Assembly: GCA_030390025.1 (NCBI GenBank) | Contig: CM059425.1 | Location: 172,112,001-172,176,000 of the forward strand | Source: Squalus acanthias | Lineage: Eukaryota | DNA length: 64,000 bases | Direction: 5' to 3' | Shown: piece after piece, positions 8,433 through 37,769 of the stretch | Layout of the letters: every line of letters begins with the position of its first letter | How positions within the stretch are numbered: the stretch's first letter is position 1 | Notes under the pieces: generated by a model | Told to the model about the DNA's origin: nothing | Seen by the model: the letters and a program-made list of their open reading frames with translations, nothing else | Database searches by the model: none | Program-made: the position numbers and the translations under genes

Positions 8433-9618
8433 AAAAATACTTAACTGGAGGAGGGCTAATTAAAGCAAATTGAGGAGAGATCTTGCCTGGGTAAATTGGA
8501 GTCAAAGACTGGCAGGCAGAAATGTAAATGGAACAATGGGCAGCCTTTAAAGAGGAGATAGTTCAGGTACAGTCTAGGTACATTCCTACAAGGGGGAAAG
8601 GGTGGGCAACCAAAGCCAGAGCTCCCTGGAAGACGAAGGAGTTGGAGAGCAGGATAAAGCAGAAAATGGGGGCATATGACAGATGTCGGCTTGATAATAC
8701 AAGGGAGAATCAGGCTGAATATAAAAAGTACAGAGAAGAAGTGAAATAGGAAACGAGGGTCAAAGAGTCAGTACGAGAATAGATTGGCAGCTCACAAAAA
8801 GGGAATCCAGAGTTCCTCTATAGGCACATTAACAGTAAAAGGGTTGTCAGGAGCGGTGGGGTCGATTAGGGACCAAAATGGAGAACTATTGGTGGAGGCA
8901 GAAGGCATGGCTGAGGTACTAAATGAGTACTTTGCATGGGTGTTTACCAAGGAAGAGGACTTTGCCAAAGCTGTGGTAATCGAGAGGTTGCTGCGATACT
9001 GGATGAGAAAGAGGAGGAGAGCCAGCATGGATTTATTAAGGGCAAATCGTGTTTGACTAACTTGATTGGGTTTTTTGATGTGGTAACAGAGGGTGGATGA
9101 GGGCAGTGCAGTTGATGTTGTTCAAAAGGCATTTGATAAAGTACCACATACTAGGCTTGTTGGCAAAATTCAAGCCCATGGGATAAAAGGGGCAGCAGCA
9201 GCATGGATTCAAAATTGGCTAAGGGATAGAAAACCGAGTTAAAGTGAATGGCAGTTTTTCAGACTGGAGGGAGGTATACAGTGATGTTCCCCAGGGTTCA
9301 TTTTTCGGACCACTGCTGTTTTTGATGTACATTAATGACTTGGACTTGGGGGTGCAGAGCACAATTTCAAAATTTGCAGATGACATGAAACTTGCAAGTG
9401 TAGTAAACAGTGAGGAAGATAGTAATAGACGTGAAGAAGACATAGACAAGCTGGTGGAAGGAAGAATGAGGAGGGACCATACACACTAGATGGTACAGTT
9501 TTAAAGGGGGTGCAAGAACAGAGACCTGGGGTGCTTGTGCACAAATCTTGAAGGTGGCAGGACAGGTTAACAAAGCAGTTAATAAAGCATATGGGATCCT
9601 TGGCTTTAAAAATAGAGG

Positions 9619-9858
9619 TCATGATGCGGAGATGCCGGTGTTGGACTGGGGTGGACAAAATTGAGAGGTCGCACAACACCAGGTTATAGTCCAACAGTTT
9701 TATTTGAAATCACAAGCTTTCGGAACTATCGCTCCTTCCTCAGGTGAAGTAAATTGGATACCAAGTTACTTCACCTGAGGAAGGAGCGATAGTTCCGAAA
9801 GCTTGTGATTTCAAATAAAACTGTTGGACTATAACCTGGTGTTGTGCGACCTCTCAAT
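9619..9858. mobile_element. Non-autonomous fold-back PLE derivative (family 1): two head-to-head pLTR ends
   Basis: 14-bp TSD tttaaaaatagagg (9605-9618, 9859-9872); perfect 96-bp inverted arms 9657-9752 / 9766-9861; sequence nearly identical to the termini of the PLE at 32644-35923. Confidence 0.92.
9771..9808 (+). ncRNA. Minimal hammerhead ribozyme motif (mirror copy on - strand at 9710-9747)
   Basis: tcac CTGAGGA a GGAGC gata GTTCC GAAA GC TT gtga. Confidence 0.8.
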
Positions 9859-9913
9859 TTTAAAAATAGAGGCAGAGAGCACAAAAGCCAGGAAGTTATG
9901 CTAAACCTATATA

Positions 9914-10403
9914 CAGGAAACTCTTGTTTAACCGGCACCTAAATATCCGGAATTCTCTCTTAACCGGCAAAAATCATACTCCGAAAACTCCTCTCAAATA
10001 ACCGGCAATGTTGCCGAGTCCGAGTCTCCCGCGAACGCCGAGTTAGTCAGTGGGGGTAGTTCTCCAAAGTGCCACTACTCGGCCTCCGGGCGCTGTCGGA
10101 AGTCCGAACACTGCAGTAACAGGAGTCTGATTCTCCCGCGCTGCCGGGAGTCTCACTTACTGTTAAGTAATTAAAGAGTTATGGATTACCCTCAACTGGC
10201 AGTACTGTACTTAATCAAGCATCTTCCACCATCCATTTAACACAACATTCTGTAGGTGAGTAACCAAATACTGTATACTGCACATTTCTTGATTTTTTTA
10301 TGTTAAAAATAGCCTCGGTAGATATAACTCTCCGTTATCCGGAACTTTCGATCAACTGGCACCACGCCGGTCCCGTCGGTGACGGATACCAAAGAGTTTC
10401 CTA
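9914..10403. mobile_element. Tigger/pogo-type (Tc1-mariner) MITE nested in CR1
   Basis: TA|caggaaactcttgtttaaccggcacc ... ggtgacggataccaaagagtttccta|TA: imperfect ~26-bp TIRs and TA duplication. The CR1 (aacctata|taaaacact) rejoins across it. Confidence 0.82.
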
Positions 10404-11269
10404 TAAAACACTAGTTTGGCCACAGCTGGTGTATTGTGTTCAATTCTGGACACTGCACTATAGGAAGGATGTGAAGGCTTTGGACAGGGTACAGAAGAGA
10501 TTTACTAGAATGGTTCCAGGGTAGAGAAGCTGGGGTTGTTCTCCTTGGAGCAGAGAAGGCTAAGAGGAGATTTGATAGAGGTGTTTAAAATCATGAGGAG
10601 TTTAGATAGAGTGAATAAAGAGAAACTGTTTCCAGTGGCTGAAGAGTCAATAACGAGAGGGCACAGATTTAAGGTGATTGGCAAAAGAATCAGAGGCGAC
10701 ATGAAGAAAATCTATTTTACGCAACGAGGGGTTAGGATTTGGAAAGCACGACCGGATAGGGTGGTGGATACAGATTCAGTAGTAGCCCTCAATAGGGAAT
10801 TGGATAAATACTTGAAAGAGGAAAAAAATTGAAGTGATATAGGGAAAGAGTGGGGGAGTGGGACTAACTGGATTGCTCTTCGAGGGAGCCGGCGCAGACT
10901 CGATGGGCTGAATGGCCTTCTGTGCTGTACTATTCTATGATTCTAAAAGTTACCATAGATTAAATAAAATGCCAATTTATGCACCGTTTGGTTTGGGAGT
11001 GACCAGGAGGGTTTGGAATCGGTCATAATGGAGCAGAGTTTGTGGTGGGGGCTAAAAATGATTGTTTTGGTCTTCCTGCTTTTGAGTTGGAGGAGCTTGT
11101 CACTCATCCAAGACTTGATTGAGATAAGTGCTGAATTGATAGGGCAGGGTCTCAGCAACATGTGTGAAAGCTGACCCATGCCCACAGATGACTTCACTGA
11201 GGGTGAAATTAAAAGAGACTTGCGAGACTCCAACAAATGCAGAACAGCAATTAACAGTGTCAGTGGAAT

Positions 11270-12390
11270 GCTGAATTAAATAACTAACAAGGTGCCACAC
11301 AAGATTGGGTTGGGGGTAATATATTAGCATGGATTGAGGATTGGTTAACTGACAGAAAACAGAGTAGGAATAAACTGGTCATTTTCAGGATGGCAGGCAG
11401 TAACTAGTGGAGTACCACAAGGATCAGTGCTTCGATGAAGGGACTGAGTGTTATATATCCAAGTTTGCTGACAATACAAAGCTAGGTGGAAATCTAAGCT
11501 GTGAGGGGAACACAAAGTGTCTGCAAATGAATATAAGCAGGTTACGTAATTGGGCAAGAAGGTGGCAGGTGGAGTATAATTTGGGGAAGTGTGAAATTAT
11601 CCACTTTGGTAGGAAGAATGGAAAAACAGAATTTTTTTTTAAAAGGTGAGAGACTAATAAATGTTGATATTCAGAGGGATTTAGGTGTCCTTGTACATGA
11701 ATCACAAAGTTAACATGCAGGTACAGCAAGCAATGAAGGCAAATGGTATGTAGCATTTATTGCAAGGTGGTTGGAGGACAAGAGTAAGGAAGTTTTGCTG
11801 CAATTATGTAGGGCTTTGGTGAGACCACACCTGGAGTGCTGTGTACAGTTTTGGTCTCCTTTCCTAAGGAAGAATACACTTCGCTTGGAGGCAGTGCAGC
11901 GAACGTTCACCAGTTTGATTCCTGTGATGAGAGGGTTGTCCTATGAGAGGAGATTGTGTAGAATGGGCCTATACTCTCTGGAATTTAGAAGAATGAGAGG
12001 TGATCTCATTGAAACATATAAGATTCTGAGGGGGATTGACAGGGTAGATGCTGAGAGGCAGTTTGCACTGGCTGGAGAGTGTAGAACTCGGGATCATAGT
12101 CTCTGGATAAGGGGTCGGCCATTTAGGACTGAGTTGAGGAGAAATTTCTTCACTCAGTGGGTTGTGAATCTTTAGAATTTTCTAACTCAGAGGGCTGTGG
12201 ATGCTCAGTCGATCAGTATATTCAAGACTGAGTGATTGATAGATTTTTAGGCACTAAGGGATTCAAGGGATATGGGTATAGGGCAGGAAGGTGGAGTTGA
12301 TGTACAAGTTCATCCATGATCTTATTGAATGGCGGAGCAGGCTCGAGGGGTACATACGGCCTACTCAGGCTCCTATTTCTTGTGTTCTAA
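11270..12390 (+). mobile_element. 5'-truncated CR1 LINE
   Basis: ISKFADNTKLGG, ALVRPHLE, RRMRGDLIE, CR1 3' end. Confidence 0.9.
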
Positions 12391-13269
12391 GACAGTGGGA
12401 ATCATAAAACTGTATCAAGCATTGGATGTAATGTTGAGAAGAGCCATGAGGCTGATCCCAAATGTAAGAGATGCTGAGGAACGACTGGAGAAATTTGGGA
12501 TGCACAGACTTGTACAGAGGCACCTGAGAGCTGATCTTTTCAGAGGTACATCAAATAGTTTTTAAATTTGTTCATAGGATGTGGGCAATGCTTGCAAGGC
12601 TGCATTTATTGCCCATCCCGAGTTGCCCTTGATAATGGTTAGCCAGCATCTTAAACTGTTGCAGTTACTGTCGTCATGATGCTTCCACTATGATGTCAGG
12701 GAATTTCAAGAGTTTGACTAAGTGCCAGTGGGTGGCGGGGAGGAGAATGTTGTTCCCACGACATTGCAGCTCTTGTCCTTCTCGGTATAGAGGTTATGGG
12801 GCTGGTAGGAGCTCTCGAACTAACTAGTTAACAATATGGAAAAAGTAAATCTGGAAAATTGCTTCAAACTAAATTGCAACAGCAGGCCAAGGGTCTCTGG
12901 TTCAAACTTGTAAAAGGCAAATTTCAAGAAGTTCTTCCTTGTACAAAGAGTGATCAATACATGGAGTGGATTTCCAGATGGGATAGCAATGCCGAAAACC
13001 TAAACTAGCTTCCAGTTGGATGCTGTAAAGGGGGGACTTTAGGGTCTTTACGAAAAGATGAGCTGAATGGCCTTCCTCATCTGCAGTTATGATGCCATTT
13101 TGTGACGTGGCAAAGCCAGATCTGGAGATTGATGACTAAGCCAGTTGTGTGCCAAATACATTCAAACTTGAGGGTGTGAAGATGGGGACCATAGTAGGGA
13201 AGCAAGACAGGAAAAAATACATCCTGCAACAACATAGATTGCATATTCAAACATGGGTAAAACTAGAGA

Positions 13270-13670
13270 ATTACATAGAATTTACAGCACAGAAACAGGC
13301 CATTTGGTCTAACAGGTTTATGCTGGTATTTATGCTCTTCATCTCACCCTATCAACATATCCTTCTATTCCTTTCTCCCTTGTGTACTAGCTTCTCCTTA
13401 AATGCATCTGTTATTCACCTCAACCACTCCATGTGGTCATGTGTTCACATTCTCACTACTCTCTGAGTAAAGAAGTTTTTCCTGAATTCCTTATTAGATT
13501 TATTATTGACTATATTACATATATGAGCCCTAGTTTTGAACTCCCCACAAGTGGAAACATCTTCTCCGTCTACCCTATTTAACCCCTTCATAATTTTATA
13601 GACTTCTAATCAGTCACCTCTGTCTTCTCTTTTCGAGAAAAGATCCCCAGCCAGTTCAGTCTTTCATGAT
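13270..13670 (-). mobile_element. CR1 3' fragment
   Basis: Similar to the 4594-5000 CR1 end (acatagaatttacagcacagaaacaggcc...). Confidence 0.75.
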
Positions 13671-14198
13671 CGTTGCAAATGGGGTACTTGATTGTGCCCT
13701 AAAGGAGAGTTGAGAGGAGAAAAACAGTCGGTGCATACAGACAAGTTAGGGATATTGAGGAGCTGATTTGAGGATGTGGCTAATTCTGGAACAAATTTAA
13801 GTTCCATGTAGTCATGGTTGAAAAACTTATGCAGAATTGTAAAACTAAAACTAAGAAGGGAATCACTAAACAGCCAATTACTAATAAATAATGTAGAGTC
13901 ACATTTGTTTAAAAAAAACCTCCCAACTCCACACCAACGGAAGATTTAAAAAACTCAATTGAAGCATAGGAGTGTCATCAAGGGAATGACACAAACCTAG
14001 TCATTCAGCTTCATTTCCAAAATGGTATTCAGGAAAACTTTGAGCCAGGGTAGAGCACTTGTTAATGAATTGCATTGGTTTCTATCCATTCTTTCTGTGT
14101 GGACCAGGACAGTGAGTGTTGGCAGGCTATTTGACCTTCGAAGTGTCACAGCTAAACCTGAGCCTGTCCGCAGTTGAAAACCATACAAGTACTTTCTA

Positions 14199-14885
14199 CA
14201 ATAGCAAAATACTACGGATGCTGGAAATCTGAAATAACAACAGAAAATGCTGGAAACACTGAGCAGGCCAGGCAGCATCCGTGGAGAGAGAAACAGAGTT
14301 AACCCTTCGTCAGAACCATAAAAAGTTAGGGATGTAACAGGTTTTAAGCAGGTGCAGAGGCAGGGAAAGGTGGTGGGGAGGGGAGGAAGGGACGGTCTGT
14401 GCTAGAATGGAAGGCAAGAGAAATTAAATGTTGCAAATGGGGATGGCAGAATCATCAACCGCTGCCACCTGAAAAATTGGGGTCAGGGGTTATTGTCTGA
14501 AATTGTTAAACTCAATGTTGAGTCCAGAAGGCTGTAAAGTGCCTAATCGAAAGATGAGGTGGTGTTCCTCGAGCTTACATTGAACTTCATTGGAACAATG
14601 TAAGAGGCCGAGGACAGAGAGGTCGGAGTGGAGCGGAGAATTAAAGTGACAAGCGACCAGTCCCGGAATTTACCATTCTAGCACTGACCGTCCCTTTAGT
14701 TCCTTCCTCCCCTACCGCCCCCCCCCCCCACCCCCTTTCCCTGCCTCTGCACCTGCTTAAAACCTGTTACATCCCTAACTTTTTCCAGTTCTGACGAAGG
14801 GTCACAGACCTGAAACGTTAACTCTGTTTCTCTCTCCACGGATGCTGCCTGGCCTGCTGAGTGTTTCCAGCATTTTCTGTTATTT
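14199..14885. mobile_element. Fold-back PLE-like non-autonomous element (family 2)
   Basis: 13-bp TSD caagtactttcta (14186-14198, 14886-14898); long imperfect inverted arms (~14233-14410 vs ~14675-14885); left arm about 30 nt longer; hammerhead motif inside. Confidence 0.88.
14787..14823 (+). ncRNA. Minimal hammerhead ribozyme motif
   Basis: agtt CTGACGA aGGGTC aca GACCT GAAA CG TT aact; palindromic AACGTT. Confidence 0.8.
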
Positions 14886-16049
14886 CAAGTACTTTCTAGC
14901 TTGGTTTAATGGGTAACTGTATGAAGCAAGTACTGTTGTGGATTTGTTATTAATTGTTCTTGTTTATGGAAATTAATTATTAATGGGACATCCATATTTG
15001 AAAGATTTTAGACTTTTTTTCTTTGCCGCTTCCCAAAAGCATACTGCAAAACATGAAATTTATTCTGTATTCATATCTACATGGATCTTTTCCAAGTACT
15101 TTCAAACTCTGCTTAAAATGACTGTTGTACATGACTGTAAGATTTCCCCACAATTATCTATTCACTATGATCTAAAAATTGTTAATTTATTGTCGCCTGA
15201 TCTTTGGAACTGTCAAAACCAGCAAAGTTGGTAAGTTTTGGAATAGTTGCTTTTTTTGTAGAAAAAGTGAAAGGTAGGTTAGTTGCATGATGAAAGGATT
15301 CTGGTTTTTCAGTTGTTTGTAGTTTAGTAATTGTTTCTTAGAACCGAGGATAATTTGAACTTCAAACAACTGTACCTTAAATGTAATATTGAAAATCTGG
15401 GAATACTAGTCAGTTTGGACAAACGGAATTCATAATTGAATGTCCCCTTCAGTTGTTTCTTCACTGTGGGCCCCTCCATGCTAAGCTGTTCTGCAGTCAT
15501 ATTTTGTTTGACCAAACAACTTCCTGGTGGTGATTTTGATGTTTTGCAGTTCAGGACATCCTGGGCCTGACCATTTTCCTTTACTCTAAGAACTTTTATA
15601 TTTTACAATTGCAGTAAATTTTTTAAACGGTGTTTTCCAATTTCCCCCAGTCCTATCCCCCCCACCAATTTTTCTCCTTTCTGAAAGGCAAGTGATTCAT
15701 GTTGGGGGTGGTGTGATGGCAGTGGGACTTTATGAGCAGTGGTGGACGGACGTCTTGAACCTTGCTCGAGTCCATTATTGACTTGTGAGCCGAGACAGTT
15801 GAAGTGGGGTGGTGGTTGGGGAAGAGGCCCAGCCAAACCCGATGCAATTTTCACACAAGCTCACCTTTCTAGTAGTTGTCGCTGGATCATAATTGGGATG
15901 GGAAGCCTAGTGTTTTTTTTAAAGCTTCCTGCCCTCCAGCTCAGACACTTGGGTTGGTTACAATGCTCAGTTGACACCTGTCTGAGATCAGCCAAGTAAA
16001 CACTTACCAGGGATCAAGTCTCACCTACTTAGTTTATTGGCTTCTCTTC

Positions 16050-18897
16050 CTGCTCCCACACCGTTGCCTCTGGAGTCTCCCAAGGATCGATCCTTAGCCC
16101 CCCTCCTATTTTTCATTTACGTGTTGCCCCTCGGCGACATAATCTGGAAACATAGAAACATAGAAGATAGGAGCAGGAGTTGGCCATTCAGCCCCTTGAG
16201 CCTGTTCTGCCATTTAATGAGATCATGGCTGATCATCCAAATTCAGTACCCTGTCCCTGCTTTCTCCCCATATCCCTTGATCCCTTTAGCCTTAAGAAAT
16301 ATATCTAACTCATTCTTGAATATATTTAATGAATTGGCCTCAACTGCCTTCTGTGGCAGAGAATTCCACAGGTTCACCACTCTCTGGCTGAAGAAATTCC
16401 TCCTCATCTCAGTCTGAAATGGCTTACCCCTTATCCTTAGACTGTGACCCCTGGTTCTGGACTCCCCCGCCATCGGGAACATCCTTCCTGCATCAAGTCT
16501 GTCTAGTCCTGTCAGAATTTTATAAGTTTCAATGAGATCCCCTTTCATTCTTCTAAACTCTAGCGAATATAAGCCTAATCGACCCAATCTCTCTTCATAC
16601 GTCATTCCTGCCATCCCAGGTATCAGTCTGGTGAATCTTCGCTGCACTCCCTCCATGGCAAGAACATCCTTCCTCCGATAAGGCGACCAAAACTGCACAC
16701 AATACTCAAGGTGTGGTCTCACCAAGGCCCTGTACAACTGCAATAAGACATCCTTGCTCCTGTACTCGAATCCTCTCGCTATGAAGGCCAACATACCATT
16801 TGCCTTCTGAACCGCCTGCTGCACCTGCATGCTTACCTTCAGCGACTGGTGCACAAGGACACCCAGGTCTTGTTGCACTTCCCCTTTTCCCAATCTATTG
16901 CCGTTCAGATAATCTGCCTTCCTGTTTTTGCCACCAAAGTGGATAACCTCGCATTTATCCACATTATGGGCAGATGCATGGCAGATGCAGTAATCACCCA
17001 ACTTGTCCAAATCATACTGGAGTTTCTCTGCATCCTCACAACATGCACGCCCACCCACCCAGCTTTGTGTCGTCTGCAAACTTGGAGATATTACATCTAG
17101 TTCCCTCGTCTAGATCGTTAATATATATTGTGAATAACTGGGGTCCTGGTACTGATCCCTGCGGTACCCCACTAGTCACTGCCTGCCACTCGGAAAAAGA
17201 CCCGTTTATTCCAACTCTTTGCTTCCTGTCTGCCAACCAGTTCTCTATCCAAGTCAGTACCTTACCCCCAATCCCATGTGCTTTAACTTTGCACGCTAAT
17301 CTCTTATGCGGGACCTTATCGAAAGCCTTCTGAAAGTCCAAATACACCACATCCACTGGTTCTCCCTTATCTATTCTACCAGTTACATCCTCAAAAAATT
17401 CCAGTAGATTAGTCAAGCATGATTTACCTTTTGTAAATCCATGTTGACTTTGTCCGATCCTGTCACTGTTTTCCAAGTGCTCTGCTATTAGATCTTTTAT
17501 AATGGACTCCAGCATTTTCCCGACTACCGATGTCAGCTTTACCGGTCTATAATTCCCCGTTTTCTCTCTCCCACCTTTTTTAAATAGTGGGGTTACATTA
17601 GCTACCCTCCAATCCATGGGAACTGTTCCAGAGTCTGTAGAATTTTGGAAGATGACCAGCAATGCATCTACTATTTCTAGGGCCACTTCCTTAAGTACCC
17701 TAGGATGTAGATTATCAGGCCCTGGGGATTTATCGGCCTTCAATCCCGTTAATTTCCCTAACACCATTTCCCTACAAATACTGATTTCATTCAGTTCTTC
17801 CCTCTCATTAGACCCTATGTTCCCGACATCTCTGGGAGGTTATTTGTGTCCTCCTTTTATGAAGACAGAACCAAAGTATGTATTTAATTGGTCTGCCATT
17901 TCTTTGTTCCTCATTATAAATTCCCCTGATTCTGACTGCAAGGGACCTATGCTTGACTTCACCAATCTTTTTCTCTTCACAATCATCAGTTTCCACATGT
18001 ACGCTAACGACACCCAGCTCTACCTCACCACCACCTCTCTCGACCCCTCCACTGCCTCTGATTTGTCTCACTGCTTGTCTGATGAGCAGAAATTTTCTCT
18101 GATTAAATATTGGAAAGATTGAAGCCATTGTCTTCAGTCTTCGCCACAAACTCTGTTCCTTCGCCACCATCTCTGCCCCTAACCCTGGCCACTGTCTGAG
18201 ACTAAACCAGACTGTTAGCAACCTTGGTGTCCTATTTAACCCTGAGCTGAGTTTCTGAACAGATAGCCTCCATCAACATGACCGCCTACTTCCAACCCCG
18301 TAATGTTGCTCGTCTTCGCCCCTGCTTCCGCTCGTCTGTTGAAACCCTTATCCATGCCTTTGTTACCTCCAGACTTGACTATTCCTGACTGACCTCCCAT
18401 CTTGCACCCTCCAAAATTCTGCTGCCTGTGTCCTAACTTCTACCAAGTCCTGTTCACCCATCACCCCTGTGCTTACTGCACTACATTGGCTCCTGGTCTG
18501 GCAGCGCCTCAATTTTAAAACTCTCATCCTTGTTTTCAATTCCCTCCATGGCTTTACCCCTCCCTATCTCTGTAACCTCCTCCAGCTGTGCATCCCTCCG
18601 AGATCTCTGCTTTCCCCCAATTCTGTTATCTTGTGCATCCATGATTATCATTGATCCATCATTGGTGGTTGTGCCTTCAGCTGCCTAGGCCCTAAGCTCT
18701 GGAATTCCCTCCCTAAACCTTTCTGTCCTCCTTTTAAGACGCTCCTTAGACACCTACCTCTTTGACCAAGCTTTTGGTCACCTGTCCTAATATCTCCTTG
18801 TGTGGCTCAGTGTCAGATTTTATTTGATAATCCTCCTGTGTAGCGTCTTGGGACATTTTACTACGTTAAAGGCAATACTATATAAATGCAAGTTGTT
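16050..18897 (+). mobile_element. L2 LINE 3' part split by the CR1 above (16050-16147 + 17982-18897)
   Basis: GVxQGSxLxPLLF-like sequence left of the CR1 and FHMYANDTQLY right of it; LHWL..RLNFK; L2 tail ctatataaatgcaagttgtt. Confidence 0.85.
16148..17981 (-). mobile_element. Relatively young 5'-truncated CR1 LINE inserted into an L2
   Basis: Long ORF2 pieces (243 and 278 aa): [36 protein letters not shown]; tail catagaaacataga. Confidence 0.95.
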
Positions 18898-19589
18898 AAT
18901 ATCACCTAGGTTTTGCATTTATACAGCAGGCCATTTGGGGAACTCTTTCTTTCCTGTTCCTTACACAATTATGAGGGAGTTTTTTTCACCGTGGGATCAG
19001 AATACACATGTGACATGTTATCTTGTACTTTATTTTTCTGATTGCTAAATAGGTGTGAAATTTGTACACCAGAGAAGTAAAGTTTTAGTTATTTATGTCT
19101 TCCTATTTATAAAGACCTAAACTATGACTATAATAGATGGCCAGATAGTGATGATCAAAACTTTTTGTGCCTTAAATGTGGTACAATTTTAAATAGTGGA
19201 AAAAATATAGACTACCTTTCTAAAACAAGTATGAATCACTTGGAAACATCCAAGCCCCATTTACAGGTCTCGAAGTTGTATGTTGCTTTCATAATGTTTT
19301 AAAAAATTGAATGCTGTGCATTGGCCAAGAGCAGTCCCTACCAATCCAATATATTTAAAACATTTTTAAAACAGCTGGCCTCCTTTTATCAGAAGTTTAA
19401 TTTTCATCCTATTTTCCATGTCCAGACTGCACTGAAGCAGGATGCCTCAACACTCTCTTTCTACTTTTCATTGCACTCATTTGAATATTTCTCAGGCATT
19501 GGGACACCCAAGCATTTAATGGCTTTCTAAAGCTGTTTAATATATGTAAAGCCTGATTTGTAGAATAACTTGTAGTTTGTTTAACTTCG

Positions 19590-20157
19590 GATAGCCTCTC
19601 TGACTAATTGACCCTCCCACAAATCTCCTCCATGTATTCTTCCATAAACTTGAGCTCACCCAAAACTCCGCTGCCCGTATCCTAACTCACATCAAATGCC
19701 GTTCACCCATCAACCCTGCGCTTGCTGCCCTACATTGGCTTCTGGTTCACCAATGCCTCACTTTTAAAATTCTTGTCCCCGTGTTCAAATCCGTCCATGG
19801 ACTCTTCCCCTCCCTATCTCTGAAACCTACTTTAGCCCTACAACCCTCTGAGAACTCTCTGTTCCGCCAACTCTGGCCTCTTGTGTATCCCCCCCACTTC
19901 CTTCACCCCACCATTGGCAGCTGCCTTTAAACATTTAGGCCCTAAACTCTGGAATTCCCTCCCTAAAACTCTGCCCATCTCTTAATAGATGCTCCTTTTA
20001 TAAGATTTTTTTTTTGACCAAGTGTTTGGTCACCTGGCCTAATGTCTCTTTCGTTCTTTGGCTTTGGTGCCAATTTTTGTCTCATTACACTCCTGTGAAT
20101 CACCTTGGGACGTTTTACTACATTAGAAGTGCTATGTAAATGCATGTAGTTGTTGTA
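19590..20157 (+). mobile_element. L2 3' fragment
   Basis: Similar to 18400-18897 (ctacattggct, ctctggaattccctccctaaa, gctatgtaaatgca tail). Confidence 0.8.

Positions 20158-21713: not shown

Positions 21714-21720
<7 letters not shown>

Positions 21721-21748
<28 letters not shown>
21721..21748 (+). repeat. (CT)14 microsatellite
   Basis: Direct reading. Confidence 0.95.
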
Positions 21749-21752
<4 letters not shown>

Positions 21753-22147
21753 CCAATCTTTCTTCCCTCTTTATTTCTCTTTCTGTATTGAATTTCTCTC
21801 ATTCACCCTATTTGGGTGTACAGGACACAACTTCAAAATTTGCAGAGGACACAAAACTTGGAAGTATAGTGAACAGTGAGGAGGATAGTGATAGACTTCA
21901 AGAGGACATAGACAGGCTGGTGGAATGGGTGGACACGTGGCAGATGAAATTTAACGCAGAAAAGTGCAAAGTGATACATTTTGGTAGGAACAACGTGGAG
22001 AGGCAATCTAAACTAAAGGGTACAATTCTAAAGGGGGTGCATGAACAAAGAGACCTGGGGGTATATGTGCACAAATCGTTGAAGGTGGCAGGGCAGGTTG
22101 AGAAAGTGGTTAAAAAAGCATACGGGATCCTGGGCTTCATAAATAGA

Positions 22148-22278
22148 AATGAGAAGTCGCACAACACCAGGTTATAGTCCAACAGATCTATTTAAAATTA
22201 CAAGCTTTCGGCGCTATCGCCCCTTCGTCAGGTAAAGTTACAATGAGTGAATCTACAAAAGTTCACAGAATATAAACA
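22148..22278 (-). mobile_element. 5'-truncated PLE 3' end (family 1 variant) inserted in CR1
   Basis: Shares gagaagtcgcacaacaccaggttatagtccaacag with the other PLE ends; imperfect 10-bp TSD cataaataga/cataaatcga (22138-22147, 22279-22288). Confidence 0.85.
22198..22235 (-). ncRNA. Minimal hammerhead ribozyme motif with compensatory stem I
   Basis: Reverse complement: ttac CTGACGA a GGGGC gata GCGCC GAAA GC TT gtaa. Stem I is ttac/gtaa versus tcac/gtga in the other copies. Confidence 0.8.
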
Positions 22279-23589
22279 CATAAATCGAGGCATAGAGTAC
22301 AAAAGCAAGGAAGTTATGATGAACCTTTATAAAACACTGGTTCGGCCTCAACTGGAGTATTGTGTCCAATTCTGGGGACCGCACTTTAGGAAGGATGTGA
22401 AGGCCTTAGAGAGGATGCAGAAAAGATTTACGAGAATGGTTCCAGGGATGAGGGGCTTCAGTTACGTGGATAGGCTGGAGAAGCTGGGGTTGTTCTCCTT
22501 CGAACAGTGAAGGTTAAGAGGAGATTTGATAGAGGTGTTCAAAATCATGAGGGGTCTGGACAGAGTAGATAGAGAGAAACTGTTCCCATTGGCAGAAGGG
22601 TTGAGAACCAAGGGCAATTAGGAATAGGCAATAAATGCTGGCCTTGCCAGTGATGCCTACATCCCATGAACGAATAAAAAAAAAAAAAACCAGAGGACAC
22701 AGATTTAAGGTGAATGGCAGAAGAACCAAAGGTGACATGAGGAAAAAATGTTTACGCAGCAAGTAGAATGCAATGCCTGAAAGGGCGGTAGACGAGCTGA
22801 AGTGCTCTTGCAGAGAAACGGCACGGGCTCAACGGGCCGAATGGCCTCTTCTGTGTTGTAAGCATTCTATGATTTTTTTTGTTTCTTTATCTTTAAATCT
22901 CATTGGTAAAGAGATGGACTGTTAGTCCCCTCATTCACCAAGTTCCCAGATGCCCATTGACCTTGCTGCTCGGTTACCAGTTCGCACTACCAGCAATGAG
23001 TGGCGCAAATGTTTTTTCAAGCTGAAGAGTAAGTAAAATAATCTAACAAACAGGGAACACTGCAAGATGCCCTGCTGCAGCAAATTCTGGGCCATAGTTC
23101 CTTATTTGTTCAGCTCCATTATAAAATAAGAAATTCATGTCCTCCTGTTGGGTAGGGGAAAGGAAATACCAGAGATTTTTCTTCAATTGCATTGTCCCAT
23201 ACTGATATCAGGTCCTCATCCCTTCCCCATATAAATGTGCTTTTCTGAGCTATATCTTCAGTTCTTTTTCATCTGTTGATTCTGCTCACAAATAAGCTTC
23301 CACTTGATCTTCATTTTGTTAGTGTTAGCTTATTTTTAAGGTGTAAAATGTTTGCAGAAATATTTTTGCCTTGGGTGGTGCATGCTTAGCAAATGTTTCA
23401 GTTCTGGTCTTCCTGTTCGAGTTTTTATTTACATATTTTTTTCAGGATCAGTGTCTAAGAACTGGAGTGAACCTTTATATACCCCATTCTTGGTAATAGT
23501 GAGCCCAGGAGTTGAACAGAAGCACTTAAACTTATTTAGTTTACTAGATGCAACACAAGCCCTCTTATGACCGTTATTTCCAAAAGGCA

Positions 23590-28575: not shown

Positions 28576-28579
28576 TCGT

Positions 28580-29139
28580 GTGGGTTCTCAACCTTTTTGC
28601 TTCAGAGGTCCCCTCTTGTGTTCTAAAAAATCCAAGGACCCACTGTAATACAGCAGAATTATTTTTTTCTGTATAAAAATTAATTATACAATTAAACGTA
28701 TATTTATTTTTGTTTCACTAACTTAATGTGAAACTTGTTGACGGTGCTGAAGTTGAGACTGTATCTGAGGTTGGTGGAGTTCTGCTTAAGTTAGTAGACT
28801 GTCGCTGAGTTTGGTAAAGTGTCGCTGGAGCTGATAGTGTTGATGAGACTGATGGTGTTGACAGGCAGTAACAACTCTCAGTTTTCCTCGTGTCCGTAAC
28901 TAATAAGTGGAGCGCGCCCGCTGAGACTGGGCACCGTCTGCTTGACAACCCAGCAGAGCGTTGACCGTGAGTCTCTGGGGCCAAGCGGCAGTTTCTGGTT
29001 CCTCAGATCCTGTCGGGCCAGGGACTAAAGTGATACTTGCTTTGGATACTTGCTGGGGAGGTCAGTGGGCTGTTCAAAACATGTTCTGGAGGCCAGGAGT
29101 TTTCAACAGGGGTCAGCGGTACCCGGTTGAGGACCCCTG
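28580..29139. mobile_element. hAT (Charlie-like) MITE
   Basis: Termini gggttctcaacc ... ggttgaggacccctg; left end truncated where the LINE abuts; no TSD seen. Confidence 0.65.
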
Positions 29140-29886
29140 CTGGAGAGTACGCTGTGCAGTTTTAGACAGCACATTGAAGCCCTAGCGTGTACTGTATAAA
29201 TTCACCAGGAAGATAGGGATGAGAAACTATAGTTTTGAGGAGACTTGAGATATTGGGATAACTTCAACCATAGTAGAGACGGCTCACAGAGATTTAAGAG
29301 AAGTTTTCAAAATTATGACGATTTTATGAATCAGAAAGTATTTCCTCTGGTTGGAGAATCAGTAATAGAATGCTTTGCCACAGGGAGTAGTTGAGATAGT
29401 GATTGTTATGTCTTTTAAGAGAAATCTGGATAAACATTTGAAGCATGTGATTATACAGTGCTATGGGGATAGATCACGACAGTGGGATTAGATTGCTCTG
29501 GCAAAGATTAAGCATAGACACAATGAACTGAGTGCCTGCATTCTGTACTGTAAACTTATGTAGTTCTGTGGTCCTTGACCTTTATCTTTGCCTGCTGATG
29601 TACAATGGCAAAGCTCATGTAACTTTTAGTAAAAATAGACTCATTTATATTGCCGTCCCTTTACAATTCCATTCTGCTGGGGAAACAATTCTAAACTTTT
29701 CAAAATATATTGAGTTCCAATTCAAAACTATTAAGTTTTAGTTTGGCTCACTTAGTGGTACTCTTACCTAGAAGTTAGAAATTGATGACAAGGTAAGCTG
29801 ACACTTCCTTGTAGTACTGAGGGAGGACTGCATTTTTGGAGGTGTGGTCTTTCAGTTGAGGCATGAAACCAAGGTGCCACATCTTT

Positions 29887-30411
29887 ACGATAGCAAAATA
29901 CTGCGGATGCTGGAAAATTGAAACAACAACAGAAAATGCTGGAAAAACTCAGCAGGCCAGGCAACATCCGTGGAGAGAGAAACAGAGTTAACGTTTCGGG
30001 TCGAAACCCTTCGTCAGAACTGAGAAAAGAGCAGGAAATGAAACATAAAAATGCTGGTCGGAGGGGGGAGGATAACTATACATTTTATCCACCCTTTTGG
30101 TTCGTGCCTTTTTCCTTTTTTTCTCTCTCTCTCCCCCTACAGGCAGCTGTCTCTCATTCTGCCAGCATTTCACACTTCACCTTTTGTTTCTTAACCTGTC
30201 CCATTACCATCTCGTCTTGCCTTGAGCATCTCTTCATGTCTCTACTTACCATAGTTATTCCCCCCCTCCCCCCAGCCTCCCCCTTGCATTTTTATCTGTT
30301 TCATTTCCTGCTCTTTTCTCAGTTCTGACGAAGGGTTTCGACCTGAAATGTTAACTCTGTTTCTCTCTCCACAGATGTTGCCTGGCCTGAGTTTTTCCAG
30401 CGTTTTCTGTT
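29887..30411. mobile_element. Fold-back PLE-like non-autonomous element (family 2) inserted in a SINE
   Basis: 13-bp TSD gtgccacatcttt (29874-29886, 30412-30424); inverted arms ~29927-30050 / ~30288-30411. Confidence 0.88.
29986..30021 (-). ncRNA. Minimal hammerhead ribozyme motif (second copy on + at 30321-30356)
   Basis: Reverse complement: agtt CTGACGA a GGGT ttcg ACCC GAAA CG TT aact; stem II is capped by a UUCG tetraloop. Confidence 0.82.
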
Positions 30412-30709
30412 GTGCCACATCTTTGTTCAGGTGGATGAGGCACTATTTGAAGAAGAGCACTGAGTTCTCCTGGTATTTTAGCCAATAGCCGTGCCTCAAC
30501 AAGTACTATAAAAGCAGATGAATTAGTCATTTATCTCATTTACTGTTTGTGGGAATTTGTGTGAAAATTGGTTGCTGTATTTGCATATGTAACAACACTT
30601 TGAAAGTCATTTCTTGGCTTTGAGGCAGTGAGAGGATGTGGAAGATGCTATATGAATGGAAACTCTTGCTTTTTTGTCCTTTCTTAGTGCAGCTTCAGCA
30701 CCAGGTAAG

Positions 30710-32040
30710 TTTGCTCTTGGAGTGGTCTATAAAGCATTCTCCATTATTCTGTGCTAGTTGGCCACATTGAGAAGGGAGTGGGATCTTGAGAAGTGGGTTG
30801 GGTTGTATAGTTATTTTGAGATGCATTCATAAAGCTGTGCAATACCAGTGTCTGCCTTGAATCAATTTTCGAACAGTAATTGGCACTAATTATATCAGAG
30901 GACCTGACCTCAATAGAGTCCACATGTTGACACAATCTTGCAAACTATCAATCAAATTTAAATTCCTCTTTGACATCTCTATCATCATTCCTCGTGTCAG
31001 TGAACTCAAGTTGTGCTTTGGTTGTCAACCTGCTCTCTCATTGCTTGATTTATCCCATGTTTTTGGGAATCTTAATCAAATCATTGGGACACTTTGCTTA
31101 CGAGGGAGGAGGAGATGAAGAGGAGGCATTTCCTTCATTGGAATATCTAGTAATGTTTCCTTTACAATGACTGATGCCACCTTCCCAGTGCCCAGCTATC
31201 TTCCTAGCATTTGAACAAGGTTACATTTTCAACAATCTGTCTAATTCTGTTAGCCAAACAAGAAGCCCAATTTGCTGACTACCTTGGATTGAATCTGCTT
31301 TTCAGGAATCTGATCCAGGTGTGTGAACAGAGTTTTCATTGCAAGTACTTTCAGATCCTGTTTGTTCTCATGTTCAGCTATGTTCACAAGATCTGGGCAC
31401 AGGAGAGTATAATCATGGCAGAGATTAACTGGATTCTTGAATCTTCCAAGTTCACAATGTTGACCGGTCTCTCTGCCTTCTTCACTTAAAGGGTTGGATA
31501 TGATTAATTGACCCACAAGGTTCCTTTTTTGATGGTTTGACCAGCCTGGGCTATTTTATTTACTGTAAACTTAATCTAGCCTACCTCTGGCAAGTGTGAT
31601 ACTGATTTTTGAAAACGTGCAGAGATATAGAGTACAGCTTCTTTTGGAATATATGGAGACCCAGGCAAAAGATGGCTGCATGTCTCAAATATCTCAGATC
31701 ACAGGTTATTAATAGCTTGAAATATCTGACACTTCTTGTAGACTAACTTATTATGTTCCATGCTGTCCAAATTGAATAGTGATACCTCAGGCAACAGCTT
31801 GTCGCAATGTCAGAAATCTTTGATAATGGCAGGGCTGTTTATCCTTTCAGTTGATCTCTCTGATAACAGGAACTGAATGTCTCGTATCCAGCCTGTATTG
31901 ATTTGCAACATTTTTGTTTCAGGGATCACCACACCAATACATATAAATTTATTCTTAATCTGTCATAATGCAATATGTATTTCCTATGCGATGCCTTCAA
32001 GGCAAGTTAATCCCATTAGTGATGATTCTAGTTGTAAGAC
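30710..32040 (-). mobile_element. Possible ancient RTE-like LINE remnant
   Basis: Minus strand near 30720-30790 resembles a degraded (L)SPLLFN...IMENAL RT segment; otherwise heavily decayed. Confidence 0.3.
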
Positions 32041-32733
32041 TATACAAATTTTTAAACATTGAATATGGGCAAAATTCCCTTCAAAAGTTGACGGCTCCAA
32101 AAAAGTTCTGAATGTAGGTCTTGTGACACACTAAAACAGGAATTGGACTGTGTGCAGTGGAACTTGGATTTATCATGAACATATTATCGTAAACGTAAAA
32201 TAAAAGCAATGAGATCATGCTAGAACTTTATAAATCACTGGTTAGGCCTCCGTTGGAGAATTGTAGACCATTCTAGGCACCACACTTTTTAGGAAAGATG
32301 TCAAGGCCTTAGAAAAGGTAGAGAGGAGGTTTACCAGAATGTTACCAGAGATGATGGACTTCAGTTATGAGGAGGGGTTAGAAAAGTTAGGACTGTTCTT
32401 ACGAACAATGGCGGACAAGTAAAGACCATCTAGTCCATCGGGCCTGTCCCCCACAATTGCGATATCTTGTGTATCACAACAAATGCACTCCACCCACCCG
32501 AAACCACGTGATGATCTGGGAGAGGCAAAAAAAAATTAAAAACTCAGGCCAATTTGGCAGGAAAAAAAATCGCCTTAGAACAGAGAAGACTAAGTGGTAA
32601 CCTAATAGAGGTTTTCAAGATAATGAGAGGTTTTGATAGAGTACATGATGCGGAGATGCCGGTGTTGGACTGGGGTGGACAAAATTGAGAAGTTGCACAA
32701 CACCAGGTTATAGTCGAACAGTTTTATTTGAAA

Positions 32734-32775
32734 TCACAAGCTTTCGGAGCTATCGATCGCCCCTTCCTCAGGTGA
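32734..32775 (-). ncRNA. Minimal hammerhead ribozyme motif in inverted pLTR
   Basis: Reverse complement: tcac CTGAGGA a GGGGC gatcgata GCTCC GAAA GC TT gtga. Stem I tcac/gtga, stem II, palindromic AAGCTT in place of stem III. Confidence 0.8.
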
Positions 32776-32914
32776 AGTAAAGAGATACAGAATCGCCAAA
32801 GCAATCGATAGCTCCGAAAGCTTGTGATTTCAAATAAAACTGTTGGACTATAACCTGGTGTTGTGCGACTTCTCCGTTTTGTCCACCCCAGTCCAACACC
32901 AGCATCTCCGCATC

Positions 32915-35590
32915 ATGACCACTATCGACACCACAAACTGCAGGCTCAAAGTGGAGAGAATCGCAAGAAGATCGCGCATATCGACACCGACATCAAGTAT
33001 CTACAGAGATGCAAGAAAGCAGACAAGATCCCGAAAGGACTACAGATCACGAACCCACTCAAGTCGACATACAACACAGACTACGCTGAGAGACTCTGCC
33101 GTCGTACCTCTCGCACACTCCTCAACCATCTCGTACACCAGCTCTACAGCAAACGCCACAACCTCGAAACCAAGATAGAGTCCATGCTCTCAGCCTGTGC
33201 TCAGGACACAGCAGACCAGCTACGAGACACCGCCAAACAGACGAGGCAACGGAACTACGCTGCCTACATGCGCATCAAGAACAGGAAGCTTGAGAAACTC
33301 GGCGTAACCACCAGCAGCAACCAAGCCTCCCCCGGTACCACGGCTGCAACCACAGGGAAGTCCATCGTCAACTTGTCCGACCATACCCTCCAACCAGACG
33401 AAATCGAAGTTCTCGCCCTAGGGCTCAAGTTCTGCCCCACCACCAAAATGGACCCCATCGGTCTCGCGGCAGACACAGAGGAATTCATCAGGAGAATGAG
33501 GCTCCGGGAATACTTCCACAAATCCCAAGATGTCAGCAACAAACCCAATGAGACAATCAATGATCCAGAACAGCAGACAGAGGGACTCGCAGTGCAGCAA
33601 CCGAAGAAAAAAGAGTCAAACTGGACCCCTCCGGAGGGTCGCTGCCCCAAGCTTGACATGTATGCTCAAGCTGTCAGGAGATGCATCAACGCCAGATTCA
33701 TCAGCCGCACTCAAGACAGTCCAGAATGTCACCCGAGCACAACGCAACGCCATCCACGCTCTCAAGACCAACCGCAACATCGTCATCAAACCAGCGGACA
33801 AAGGAGGAGCCATCGTCATACAGAACAGAACGGACTCTTGTAAAGAAGCATACCGACAACTGGACAACCAGGAACACTACAGACAGCTACCCGCAGATCC
33901 GACCAAAGAACACACCCGCCAACTCAATAGACTGATCAAGACCTTCGATCCAGACCTTCAAAACATCCTACGCGCTCTCATCCCACATACTCCCCGCGTG
34001 GGAGACTTCTACTGCCTCCCAAAGATACACAAAGCCAACATACCCGGACGTCCTATCGTATCAGGTAACGGAACCCTGTGTGAGAACCTCTCTGGATACG
34101 TCGAGGGCATTCTGAAACCCATCGTACAGGGAACCCCCAGCTTCTGTCGCGACACTACAGACTTCTTACAGAAACTCAGCACCCACGGACCAGTTGAACC
34201 AGGAACACTCCTCGCCACGATGGACGTATCGGCACTCTACACCAGTATCCCCCACGATGACGGCATCGCTGCGACAGCCTCAGTACTCCACACCAACAAC
34301 AGCCAATCTCCAGACGCCATCCTACAACTCATCCGCGCCATCCTTGACCACAATGTCTTCACCTTCGACGACCATTTTTTTACCCAAACACACGGAACAG
34401 CCATGGGGACCAAATTCGCACCCCAATACACCAACATCTTCATGCACAAGTTCGAGCAAGACTTCTTCGCTGCACAGGACCTCCAGCCAACGCTGTACAC
34501 CAGATACATCGACGACATTTTCTTCCTTTGGACCCATGGCGAAGGATCACTGAAAAGACTACACGATAACATCAACAAGTTCCATCCTACCATCAAACTC
34601 ACCATGGACTACTCCTCAGAATCGGTTTCATTCCTGGACACACGAATTTCCATCAAAGACGGACACCTCAGCACTTCACTCTACCGCAAGCCCACGGACA
34701 ACCTCACGATGCTCCACTTCTCCAGCTTCCACCCTAACCATGTTAAAGAAGCCATCCCCTATGGACAAGCCCTGCGAATACACAGGATCTGCTCAGACGA
34801 GGAGGAACGCGATGGACACCTACGGACGCTGAAAAACGCCCTCATAAGAACGGGATATGACGCTCGACTCATCGATCGACAGTTCCGACGGGCCACAGCG
34901 AAAAATCGCATAGACCTCCTCAGAAGGCAAACACGGGACACAACCAACAGGGTACCCTACGTCGTCCAGTACTTCCCCGGAGCGGAGAAACTACGCCATG
35001 TTCTTCGCAGCCTCCAACATGTCATCGATGACGACGAACACCTCGCTAAGGCCATCCCCACGCCTCCACTACTTGCCTTCAAACAGCCGCCTAACCTCAG
35101 AAGTACCATCGTTCGCAGCAAATTACCCAGCTTTCAGGATAACAGCGACCACGACACCACACAACCCTGCCACGGCAACCTCTGCAAGACATGCCAGATC
35201 ATCAACACAGATACCATCATCACACGTGAGGACACTACCCACCAGGTACATGGTACATACTCATGTGACTCGGCCAACGTTGTCTACCTCATACGTTGCA
35301 GGAAAGAATGCACCGCGGCATGGTACATCAGCGAGACCATGCAGACACTGAGACAACGTATGAACGGACACCGCGCAACAATCGCCAGGCAGGAGTGTTC
35401 CCTCCCAGTCGGGGAACACTTCAGCAGTCAAGGACATTCAGCCTCGGATCTGCGGGTAAGCGTTCTCCAAGGCGGCCTTAGAGACACACGACAACGCAAA
35501 ATCATCGAGCAGAAACTGATAACCAAGTTCCGCACTCATGAGGACGGTCTCAACCGGGATCTTGGGTTTATGTCACGATACATGACGTGA
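32915..35590 (+). pseudogene. PLE reverse transcriptase + GIY-YIG endonuclease ORF with two frameshifts (~32963, ~33710)
   Basis: Motifs KPADKGG, LPKIHK, GRPIVS, DVSALYTSI, GTAMG, RYIDD, FLD; Cys-rich linker PCHGNLCKTC; GIY-YIG NVVYLIRC...WYISET...RQRMNGHR...EHF...GLN. The reading frame is split over ORF-track entries 32843, 32863 and 33530. Confidence 0.93.
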
Positions 35591-35832
35591 TCCGGACTCG
35601 AGTCATCGTTGGCTTGTTCACAGATGTGATTCCCAGTAAAAAAGTAAACATTTTAAAGTTTATCGTTTTACATACAGACTGCAGCTTTTGACACGTTAGA
35701 CCCCCTGTGACTCCACCTCATTGTCTCAGTTGTATCTTGCTATGTCTTTGATGTGACCTGATTGTTTATCTGCCGAGGTGTGACAAAAGGCAGTCAGGGT
35801 GATTTAAATGTAGTCGTCTGCTTTTGTAAGTA

Positions 35833-35874
35833 ACACATGAGGAAGGGGCGATCAATAGCTCCGAAAGCTTATGA
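35833..35874 (+). ncRNA. Degenerate minimal hammerhead in 3' pLTR (core C mutated to A)
   Basis: acac aTGAGGA a GGGGC gatcaata GCTCC GAAA GC TT atga. Confidence 0.6.
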
Positions 35875-37769
35875 TTTCAAATAAAACTGTTGGACTATAA
35901 CCTGGTGTTGTGCGACTTCTCAATTTTGATAGAGTAGATCAAGAATACCTATTCCCTTTAGCAAGTGGGTCAATAACTAGAGGTCATAGATTTAAAATCA
36001 TTGGCAAAAGATCTCGGGGGAGAGATAAGGAGAAACTCTCTCTTCTCTCCTCCCCCCCAGAGTTGTTGGGATCTGGAACACTCTACCTGAAAAGTTGTTG
36101 GAAGTTGATTCCAGAAATAATTTTAAAAGGCAGTGGGACAGGTATTTGAGGATGAGGAACTTACAGGGTTACGGACAAAAGTGGGTATGTCGGTTGAAGC
36201 ACGACTGGATTTTCAAAGAGCCAGCACAGGCATGACGGGCCGAATGGCCTCCTTCTGTGCTGTAAGTTTCTATGATTCTAAGCTGCAGGTGTGTTGGGAC
36301 TGTCCGTGTAAACCTTGATGGTGTTTTCTGGTTCTGTGTTACTAATGAATATCAAATTACTTTCATTATGGGAAGGATCCTAAAGAACACAACTGTTGAC
36401 ACTTTGGTATATTTCTTTCTGGGATTTTGGCGCTTACTGTAAAATAATTTTCACCTGAAAGTGTTCCAAATGTTTTAAATATGATAATTGTGCGAACTTC
36501 ATTACAACTTTACAGTGGGAATCTAACCCCAGATCTAACTTTCATTTGTAAACTGAAACCTTTTGCATCGCACCGACAATCCCCAACTGACTGCAGTCTA
36601 TATTTGTAAGACAAAACTGGATCATTTTTGCATCTGTTCCTGTCCTGAACTCTGTCAGCTGAGAGACAGCCAGCGATTTCACAGATTGAGAGTATGCTGA
36701 TTTAATAATTAAAACTTTTTTTGAACAACCTTCAGAAATAGTGTCACGTTCATGTCGTCAAAAATAAAAGTTTCAACTTGAGTTCTGATAAAGGTTTATA
36801 CTGAAGTATTGATTTATCTCTTTTTTTCCTTTTTAGGCATAAATTCACTGTGCATTTAAAACACTTTATTTTGAAAGTTACAATACATGAGCTGAAAAAT
36901 GACTTGACAATAATAACAGATGAACATTTAATGTGTTTATATGCGCTCCTCTGTCCACTATTCGAATAATGAGATTAACCCACTTAATATAAACTGATTA
37001 ATGTCTCAGTTAAAACAGCAAATGGAATAATTATGTATTCGCATTCAAGAACATCCTTATCTCAAAAAAGTGTCTAACTCGTCTCGCAGAACATAATTCT
37101 TTATATGCAAGAGAACAGCTTGGCATGCTCCAGAACTTTGCTTTCAGGACAATGGAGTTTTAAAAGTTAGGTTCTAACAGTTCATTTGTTATATATAATT
37201 ATTTGGGGGGAAAAATAATGAATAAGTACTCCTGCAACTGACCCTCCAAAGCCATCAGCTCATCTCCTATCTCAGGGTTTTTGTGCAATCAGGCTCTAGT
37301 CCTACTCTCTAACTGATCTGGTTGGTTCACTGCCAACCTTGGTACACATGAAAAAAATGTGTTTTTGTGTTAAATTTTAACGAGCTGTCACACTGGTTAA
37401 AATATGGCCCATCAGTCCAACACTAATGCATGCATTTTTTCTTGTATGTAGAGTTGAACTACTTTGGTATGGTAGGTAAGCTTGCCATTTTCATTTGTAG
37501 TCACTCTAATATTGGTCAACTTGCTTCTACAATTAAGTGATAAGTCATTTTCAAAACTGAGACGTTAAATTCGAGCAAGCTTCGCCAAAGATATGTAGTT
37601 TGAATCCATGTTGTTCTAGTGTAAATACAAACTTTGTCTTGGTGCATTTTCTACAGAAGAAGAATAATATCTTTTACTGTTTCACTTATTTTTCAGAACA
37701 AGGGACATGCTTTAATCAGTTGGTGCTGAAGTCGCTTTTAGCACTGGATATTGTAGTGCCTTATTCAAC

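Follow-up and report, generated by a model that had tools for sequence, protein, structure and literature searches.

The window analysed here is a stretch of 64,000 nucleotides from Squalus acanthias (assembly GCA_030390025.1, contig CM059425.1, positions 172,112,001 to 172,176,000). It contains three inserts of one family of Penelope-like element (PLE), all located in the 3' part of open reading frame (ORF) 2 of CR1 retrotransposons. This placement, reported in an initial annotation made from the sequence letters, was confirmed from the sequence and by CR1 profile mapping. Inserts 1 and 2 occupy one site in two CR1 copies, and the family was found at the same site elsewhere in the genome. CR1 hosts were located by nhmmer with a purpose-built CR1 profile. 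The features are listed by position in the window; the dyad motif, the hot site and the scores in bits are described in the next section, and TSD stands for target-site duplication.

8438..10944, + strand: CR1 host copy 1, decayed and in pieces (model positions 359-2560), broken by PLE insert 1
9597..9604, + strand: left half-site of the dyad motif at insert 1 (TCCTTGGC), read from the sequence
9605..9616, + strand: left TSD copy of insert 1, 12 bp, repeated at 9859-9870
9617..9858, no strand given: PLE insert 1, made up of two terminal-repeat arms in inverted, head-to-head order
about 9710-9748, - strand: mirror of the hammerhead-like motif of insert 1, a candidate recognized by eye
9770..9808, + strand: candidate minimal hammerhead-like motif of insert 1 (conserved core, stem II, palindromic stem III), recognized by eye
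9859..9870, + strand: right TSD copy of insert 1, 12 bp, read from the sequence
9871..9878, + strand: right half-site of the dyad motif at insert 1 (GGCAGAGA), read from the sequence
21810..22793, + strand: CR1 host copy 2, 5'-truncated (model positions 1603-2375)
22128-22135 and 22289-22296: half-sites of insert 2
22136..22147, + strand: left TSD copy of insert 2, 12 bp, at the same CR1 position as insert 1; site of 11.7 bits
22148..22278, - strand: PLE insert 2, a lone antisense arm with a short tail
22279..22288, + strand: right TSD copy of insert 2, 10 of 12 bases remaining, one mismatch
32200..36279, + strand: CR1 host copy 3, beginning at model position 1951, just beyond the hot site, with insert 3 near position 2210
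32631..32643, + strand: left TSD copy of insert 3 (13-base repeat), right copy at 35924-35936; poor motif match
32644-35923: PLE insert 3, a full-length element
32644..32800, - strand: 5' arm of the full-length PLE, inverted and long-tailed
32915..35590, + strand: PLE ORF, with N-terminal region, reverse transcriptase (RT), C-x4-C-x2-C linker and C-terminal GIY-YIG-type nuclease with CCHH
35834..35923, + strand: 3' terminal repeat (pLTR) of the full-length PLE, with short tail

Insert 1 has a long tail on the left (start +51) and a short tail on the right (start +8), and its arms differ at 1 of 101 bases. Inserts 1 and 2 had been annotated as lying at one CR1 position to within 2 bp. The site is indeed shared, and the position proved to be exactly the same rather than 2 bp off. 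The 14 bp TSD given for insert 1 was too long: the true left TSD is 12 bp in both inserts and the extra 'gg' is element sequence. The CR1 hosts of the two inserts are 84-88% identical (99/113, 35/41 and 109/130 columns) and are therefore different CR1 copies. Insert 3 is about 280 model positions downstream of the hot site (about 2,210 compared to 1,930). CR1 makes up 22% of the window, compared to 15.5% of 200 kb of random DNA, so the location of all three inserts in CR1 is weak evidence alone. Further unrelated insertions of about 490 and 170 bases were present in CR1 hosts 1 and 3 (9914-10401 and 32400-32570) and are more signs of host decay.

Target motif and CR1 hot site

Further loci were sampled by element sequence only. 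The sample consisted of 30 loci, the first 100 places of matches to a 28-base piece of the terminal repeat, 30 of 31 places from another search, about 90 of the first 100 places matching the variant of insert 1, 20 random 10-kb stretches and the window. There were 268 unique ends, of which 205 had a duplication, giving 131 TSD-bounded insertions; the 63 ends without a duplication were excluded from the counts. The set of 131 is skewed to one subfamily. Hot-site counts are floors because flank-based merging can fuse inserts with identical CR1 flanks.

A TSD length of 12 fitted 68 of the 72 two-ended inserts, the best of the lengths 8-16 tried (60 for a length of 11 and 40 for 13). The sites outside CR1 yielded a dyad motif, CNCTGNC-N12-GNCAGNG, with an AT-rich spacer around the 12 bp TSD. 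The most frequent half-site bases outside CR1 (n = 42) were T at -4 (34), G at -3 (29), C at -5 (27) and C at -1 (25). Leave-one-out flank scores of 21 non-CR1 sites with a TSD of exactly 12 had a median of 5.8 bits, a value reached by 0.4% of random positions, while shifted windows scored -0.3 to 2.4. Of the 63 non-CR1 sites 50 were singletons and mutually unrelated. The annotated sequence preference of the element is thus upheld, with a different motif from the ATAGA then proposed: the information is in the flanks on both sides of the TSD, and two occupied sites read ACAGA. No long pure microsatellite was seen by eye at the flanks of the listed TSD-bounded sites, which do not have the microsatellite bias reported as a tendency, rather than a defining trait, of Neptune elements. 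Two hot spots were observed in non-CR1 repeats which read as SINE-like (short interspersed element), one with five sites (L015, L107, L113, L127, L182) and the other with six (L088, L126, L128, L129, L137, L139).

A matrix was built from 44 non-CR1 sites. By this matrix the empty CR1 site ranked first in 44 of 51 loci of 3 kb each, with a median score of 11.7 bits and a background frequency of 4.5e-5. The whole target site of insert 1 scored 14.7 bits. Two other CR1 peaks also scored well, at 8.9-11.9 bits for position 1079 and 10.6-14.4 bits for position 1478.

CR1 profile mapping placed 68 of the 131 insertions inside CR1 and 63 outside. CR1 is therefore enriched over its share of random DNA (15.5%), and the positional peak which had been expected in CR1 was found. 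Twenty-six of the 131 insertions were at the site encoding GILGFINRG (CR1 positions 1920-1938), and three of these belong to other CR1 subfamilies, at the corresponding position. Additional peaks in CR1 held 9, 4, 4, 3, 3 and 2 insertions. By a stricter sequence test the hot-site share was 14/42 in the sample of insert 1's variant and 5/53 and 2/31 in the others. A second CR1 hot spot was observed at model positions 1075-1083 (L065, L075, L083, L095, L115, L119, L157, L184, L195), with a near-perfect palindrome around the duplication.

Site occupancy was estimated by sampling rather than by a genome-wide junction count. The 18-base site motif has 8,491 exact copies in the genome, and the element was at the site in 19 of the first 70 (95% interval 17-39%). 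The same 210 kb around these 70 sites contained three other element segments. An anchor downstream of the site has 11,746 copies. Variant or lost sites found by this anchor were occupied in 3 of 60 cases, and anchor copies overall in 10 of 89 after adding 29 from the exact-site set (7 occupied, matched by hand). The difference between 19/70 and 3/60 was significant (Fisher p 0.0008), also when variants were limited to the 47 judged by eye to retain the CR1 site (p 0.007). Against a background of ~2e-5 insertions per base the hot site is enriched thousands of fold. Same-site recurrence in CR1 is far beyond chance, genome-wide. In locus L243 (about 1450-1520) an apparent SINE 3' end adjoins CR1 hot-site sequence at about the insertion position of the element; this junction could reflect either insertion of a SINE or truncation of CR1.

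The hot-site inserts ranged in length from 110 to 2430 bases and were in both orientations (9 and 7). Their arms had no mismatch in 13 of 16 cases, with the proviso that exact-match ascertainment favours young element copies. Occupied and empty CR1 hosts were alike in divergence, with a median of 4.7% from their majority. In a tree of 68 hosts the label 'occupied' required 16 changes, compared to 16.6 when shuffled, at least 8 of them forced by supported branches; four rows without CR1 flank were dropped, bootstrap values were still unsettled and long branches arose from some truncated hosts. At least three CR1 sub-groups contained a mixture of occupied and empty hosts. The varied lengths and orientations, the scattered hosts and the much younger age of the inserts show the insertions to be independent events, as had been argued for inserts 1 and 2; the hammerhead variant also differs among inserts. 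Of 23 hosts checked, just 4 had a reading frame that was nearly open around the site. Since the hosts were mostly already decayed on arrival of the element, the suggestion that insertion inactivates CR1 copies was not supported. Two pairs of near-identical loci (L019/L020 and L028/L029), whose members are separated on one contig by tens to hundreds of kb, are segmental duplications including an insert.

The element family and its ends

The family is a young, very abundant PLE, and by its motifs it is Neptune-type, as judged on the features given in the part of Craig et al. (2021, PMC8557442) drawn on here; the literature is cited throughout from parts of the published text. In the copy in the window, which has two frameshifts (about 32965 and 33655) and YIS where YIG is expected, the RT domain within the single ORF matched RVT_1/PF00078 (E 3e-08). 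A search with the PLE protein gave 1473 homologues among 8000 scored, the top one being a shark protein of 92% identity. The nearest named proteins were also from sharks (80-92% identity), and turtle relatives had 43-46% identity. The nuclease alignment, VVY..C...C..WYIG with two His, shows GIY-YIG with CCHH to be present. YIG was kept in 58 of 61 nuclease matches of the fetched loci (overlapping loci counted). A Pfam scan of the window's copy did not score the nuclease domain; PF01541 was present in several relatives. The cysteine linker between RT and nuclease, a Neptune feature (CX2-5CxxC), was C-x4-C-x2-C in the window's copy and in shark relatives, with 60 matches in the fetched loci. A linker of this type is common to Naiad and Nematis too (PMC8557442). 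Linker and nuclease motifs together point to the Neptune-type GIY-YIG element named in the initial annotation.

The overall structure is that of a canonical PLE. The pLTRs are in tandem or inverted arrangement with a tail, for which 30-40 bp is typical of PLEs, and the ends cluster at +3..17 and +38..57. The 28-base terminal-repeat piece has 92,044 exact copies in the genome (3.71 Gb). The 131 insertions comprise 72 with two arms and 59 with one end, an average of 1.55 arms, and on this basis the family size was estimated at ~59,000 insertions. Random DNA contained 4 insertions in 200 kb (~2 per 100 kb). Head-to-tail arrays with a period of 3,138-3,142 bases were observed (L356-L359, which is G000:C2:211.21-211.22 Mb; L362-L364; L376-L377) and are likely source loci.

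A hammerhead-like core with a variable stem II was seen by eye in the terminal repeat, following the motif description in PMC4209133. Rfam gave no hammerhead match for the motif of insert 3, the only copy searched, and just hairpin look-alikes below threshold. Stem II differed strongly among subfamilies with pairing apparently kept (by eye, many loci), and the terminal repeat was nearly constant otherwise. Another repeat family of the window, at 14197-14884, 29886-30411 and 55358-55614, also has inverted arms and a hammerhead-like core. Its sequence is unrelated to that of the family studied, and it is probably a further Penelope-type terminal repeat.

The two clusters of element ends are about 40 bases apart. 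In 70 of the 72 two-armed inserts one end had a short tail and the other a long tail, which suggests that both cut strands prime. Of the 22 inserts holding body sequence, 10 had two arms that both ran into the element body. Junctions were examined at non-hot sites against a target-independent tail template taken from read-through copies. The start of the duplication matched the element's own junction sequence in register over 1-5 bases. The mean match was 1.65 bases at short ends (n = 34; 0.48 by chance) and 1.38 bases at long ends (n = 42; 0.38 by chance), and none of 4000 permutations was as high. Where the duplication began with nCTAT, in which CTAT is the reverse complement of ATAG, the long start was at +51 instead of about +46 in 9 of 10 ends, compared to 1 of 58 others. 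At the hot site the junction match consists of four bases and a terminal mismatch. The role of ATAGA is thus likely to be in priming: a 3' overhang ending in ATAGA would pair via ATAG with the element RNA and contribute to the choice of junction. A better-matching tail in the subfamily of insert 1 was considered and rejected, as 30 of 30 loci read A at the template base (26 tallied, 4 by eye).

Explanations for recurrent insertion in CR1

The observations are probably best explained by a general target preference. Young, abundant PLE inserts have a 12 bp TSD inside a symmetric motif, and one CR1 site is hit recurrently, most likely because it resembles that motif very closely and is present in many copies. 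CR1 is, with the same good probability, a passive and already decayed substrate. The idea that CR1 is the specific target of the element did not hold, as 63 of the 131 sites show the same motif outside CR1 and hot spots also exist in two other repeats (6 and 5 sites). The proposed 'safe haven' in CR1 would be at most a by-product.

A number of results weigh against this explanation. By the matrix, about 3-4% of CR1 sites should be occupied, and 11-27% was seen; therefore something else contributes. Matrix score did not separate the 3 occupied from the 44 empty variant sites (p 0.44), and several variant CR1 sites of 13-16 bits were empty. The CR1 peaks at 2388 and 2545 scored poorly (-4.5 to 7.5 bits). 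Insert 3, credited in the initial annotation with a related TSD, is at another CR1 place with no recurrence among the 131 insertions; its target scores just 0.8 bits in the best phase, compared to 14.7 and 11.7 for inserts 1 and 2, and its ATAGA is within the TSD in a different register. CR1 was still enriched without the main site (42/105 compared to 15.5%), which comes partly from the other peaks and from a locally CR1-rich sample. The terminal base at the long junction of the hot site mismatches the RNA. The junction matches speak for pairing at priming and not for an effect of that pairing on the rate of insertion.

Some of these results would be expected if targeting of CR1 had evolved, through a longer CR1-specific recognition or a CR1-linked factor, giving a safe haven like that of Tx1L/Tx1D with the dyad motif as a relaxed shadow. 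Occupancy is about 3-7-fold above the matrix prediction, exact-site copies are occupied more often than higher-scoring variants, one subfamily is at the site more often than the other samples (14/42 compared to 5/53 and 2/31) and 68 of 131 sites are in CR1. This is nevertheless unlikely given the 63 sites outside CR1, 50 of them mutually unrelated, and the hot spots in other repeats. The CR1 site itself deviates from the consensus at -5 and -4 of the left half. Transposon specialists reach about 90% in their target, as given for SINEU-3 in the cited part of PMC4494074.

Choice of the site by RNA is less probable still. Here the element tail would pair with ATAG(A) in the DNA and select the site, with the nuclease loosely specific. 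Such a choice would fit the shift to +51 and the matches seen in register across the 5-7 bases at the start of the overhang, and also insert 3, with poor half-sites and an in-register match inside the duplication. The strongest signal, however, is outside the duplicated bases, where RNA would not pair, and the mean match is just about 1.5 bases. Two of the three occupied variant sites read ACAGA, and the two orientations are similar in rate (9 and 7). Descent of the same-site copies from one CR1 master or segmental duplications already holding the insert is highly improbable: recurring junction letters (9 ends at +51) and the few fetched loci which duplicate each other fit it, but every insert has its own TSD and it is contradicted by the varied insert structures, by the host tree and by arms free of mismatch in hosts 4.7% diverged.

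With a general dyad preference as the preferred explanation, insertion could proceed as follows. A two-fold symmetric protein-RNA complex would nick both strands immediately 5' of GNCAG, and these nicks, staggered by 12 bp, would leave a pair of 3' overhangs. After brief pairing with element RNA both overhangs would act as primers for reverse transcription, which would begin at the short-tail start (about +5 to +11) for one overhang and at the long-tail start (about +45 to +48) for the other. Head-to-head joining of the cDNAs would then produce the inverted arms. In the case of the CR1 site, pairing between the ATAG end of one overhang and four RNA bases right after the start codon would place the start at +51. 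Tandem arrays of about 3,140 bases could be a source of RNA that runs on from the terminal repeat to where the next ORF begins. For this protein the steps from nicking through priming to cDNA joining are proposed. Cutting and extension of both strands, two RT starts and a predicted dimer are described for a Poseidon PLE, Poseidon_Ac (PAc), in the cited part of Frangieh (2024, PMC11167929).

Tentatively, with somewhat less than even confidence, shark Neptune-type PLEs may integrate like a cut-and-paste transposase fused to an RT: as a dimer on a 26 bp palindrome with a fixed 12 nt stagger, making two simultaneous cDNAs from two preset RNA starts with a few RNA-DNA pairs. One subfamily may at the same time be specialising on the CR1 site. 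If true, a transposase-like single step would account for inverted arms and a one-sided tail across PLEs, and a subfamily possibly en route to CR1-site specialisation has helped fill a tenth to a quarter of that site.

Comparison with known systems

Target choice by PLEs and the origin of inverted arms with a one-sided tail are treated as open questions in the cited parts of PMC8557442 and PMC11167929. The open-access full text, without supplements, Repbase or subscription papers, gave no report of the dyad motif, of a PLE duplication fixed at 12 bp or of CR1 hot spots for PLEs. In the shark family young insertions number in the tens of thousands, the symmetric target is defined, the stagger is fixed and the end rule strict, making two-strand priming directly testable, and the family provides an exact oligonucleotide substrate for the existing in vitro PLE system. 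A compact RT-nuclease with a 26 bp preference is also of interest for targeted gene insertion.

For Neptune-clade PLEs the cited parts of Craig et al. (2021, PMC8557442) and Arkhipova et al. (2013, PMC3846280) describe variable TSDs (8, 9 and 10 bp in Adineta), a microsatellite bias and an 'optional' tail. In the shark family the TSD is nearly fixed at 12 bp in a non-repetitive dyad motif and the tail is rule-bound, short at one end and long at the other. PAc from Anolis, studied in vitro, belongs to the Penelope/Poseidon clade, unlike the Neptune-type shark family. According to the same part of PMC11167929 it has two neighbouring RT starts which define the tail, a likeness to the shark family. 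Cutting and extension of both strands and a predicted dimer are further likenesses, proposed for the shark family from its sequences. PAc differs in preferring AT-rich DNA and an ATT motif and in RNA starts reported as non-homologous to the cut DNA, whereas in the shark family the dyad motif contains GC, the stagger is fixed and primer-template matching can be measured. PLE-X families in the 28S rDNA of spike mosses, as described in the cited part of PMC8557442, are likewise PLEs at a precise recurrent site in a multicopy sequence. These are without endonuclease and in rDNA only, while the shark family is nuclease-bearing and genome-wide.

Retroelements which recur at one place of a transposon are reported in the cited part of Kojima (2015, PMC4494074), namely Tx1L in Tx1D, SINEU-3 in Mariner-N4 and Tx1-9_AMi in Harbingers. 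The shark family shares with these the independent recurrence at one base of a host transposon. The Tx1 cases are Tx1-clade long interspersed elements or their SINEs, with 90% of SINEU-3 in the target. In the shark family, with its GIY-YIG-type nuclease, at most about a fifth of the sampled copies are at the site (26 of 131), and 63 of 131 are outside CR1, so it does not have most copies at one host site. The CR1 hot spot of the shark family is a real one, most likely arising from a general palindromic target preference, and a plain sequence preference can in this way mimic one transposon hunting another.

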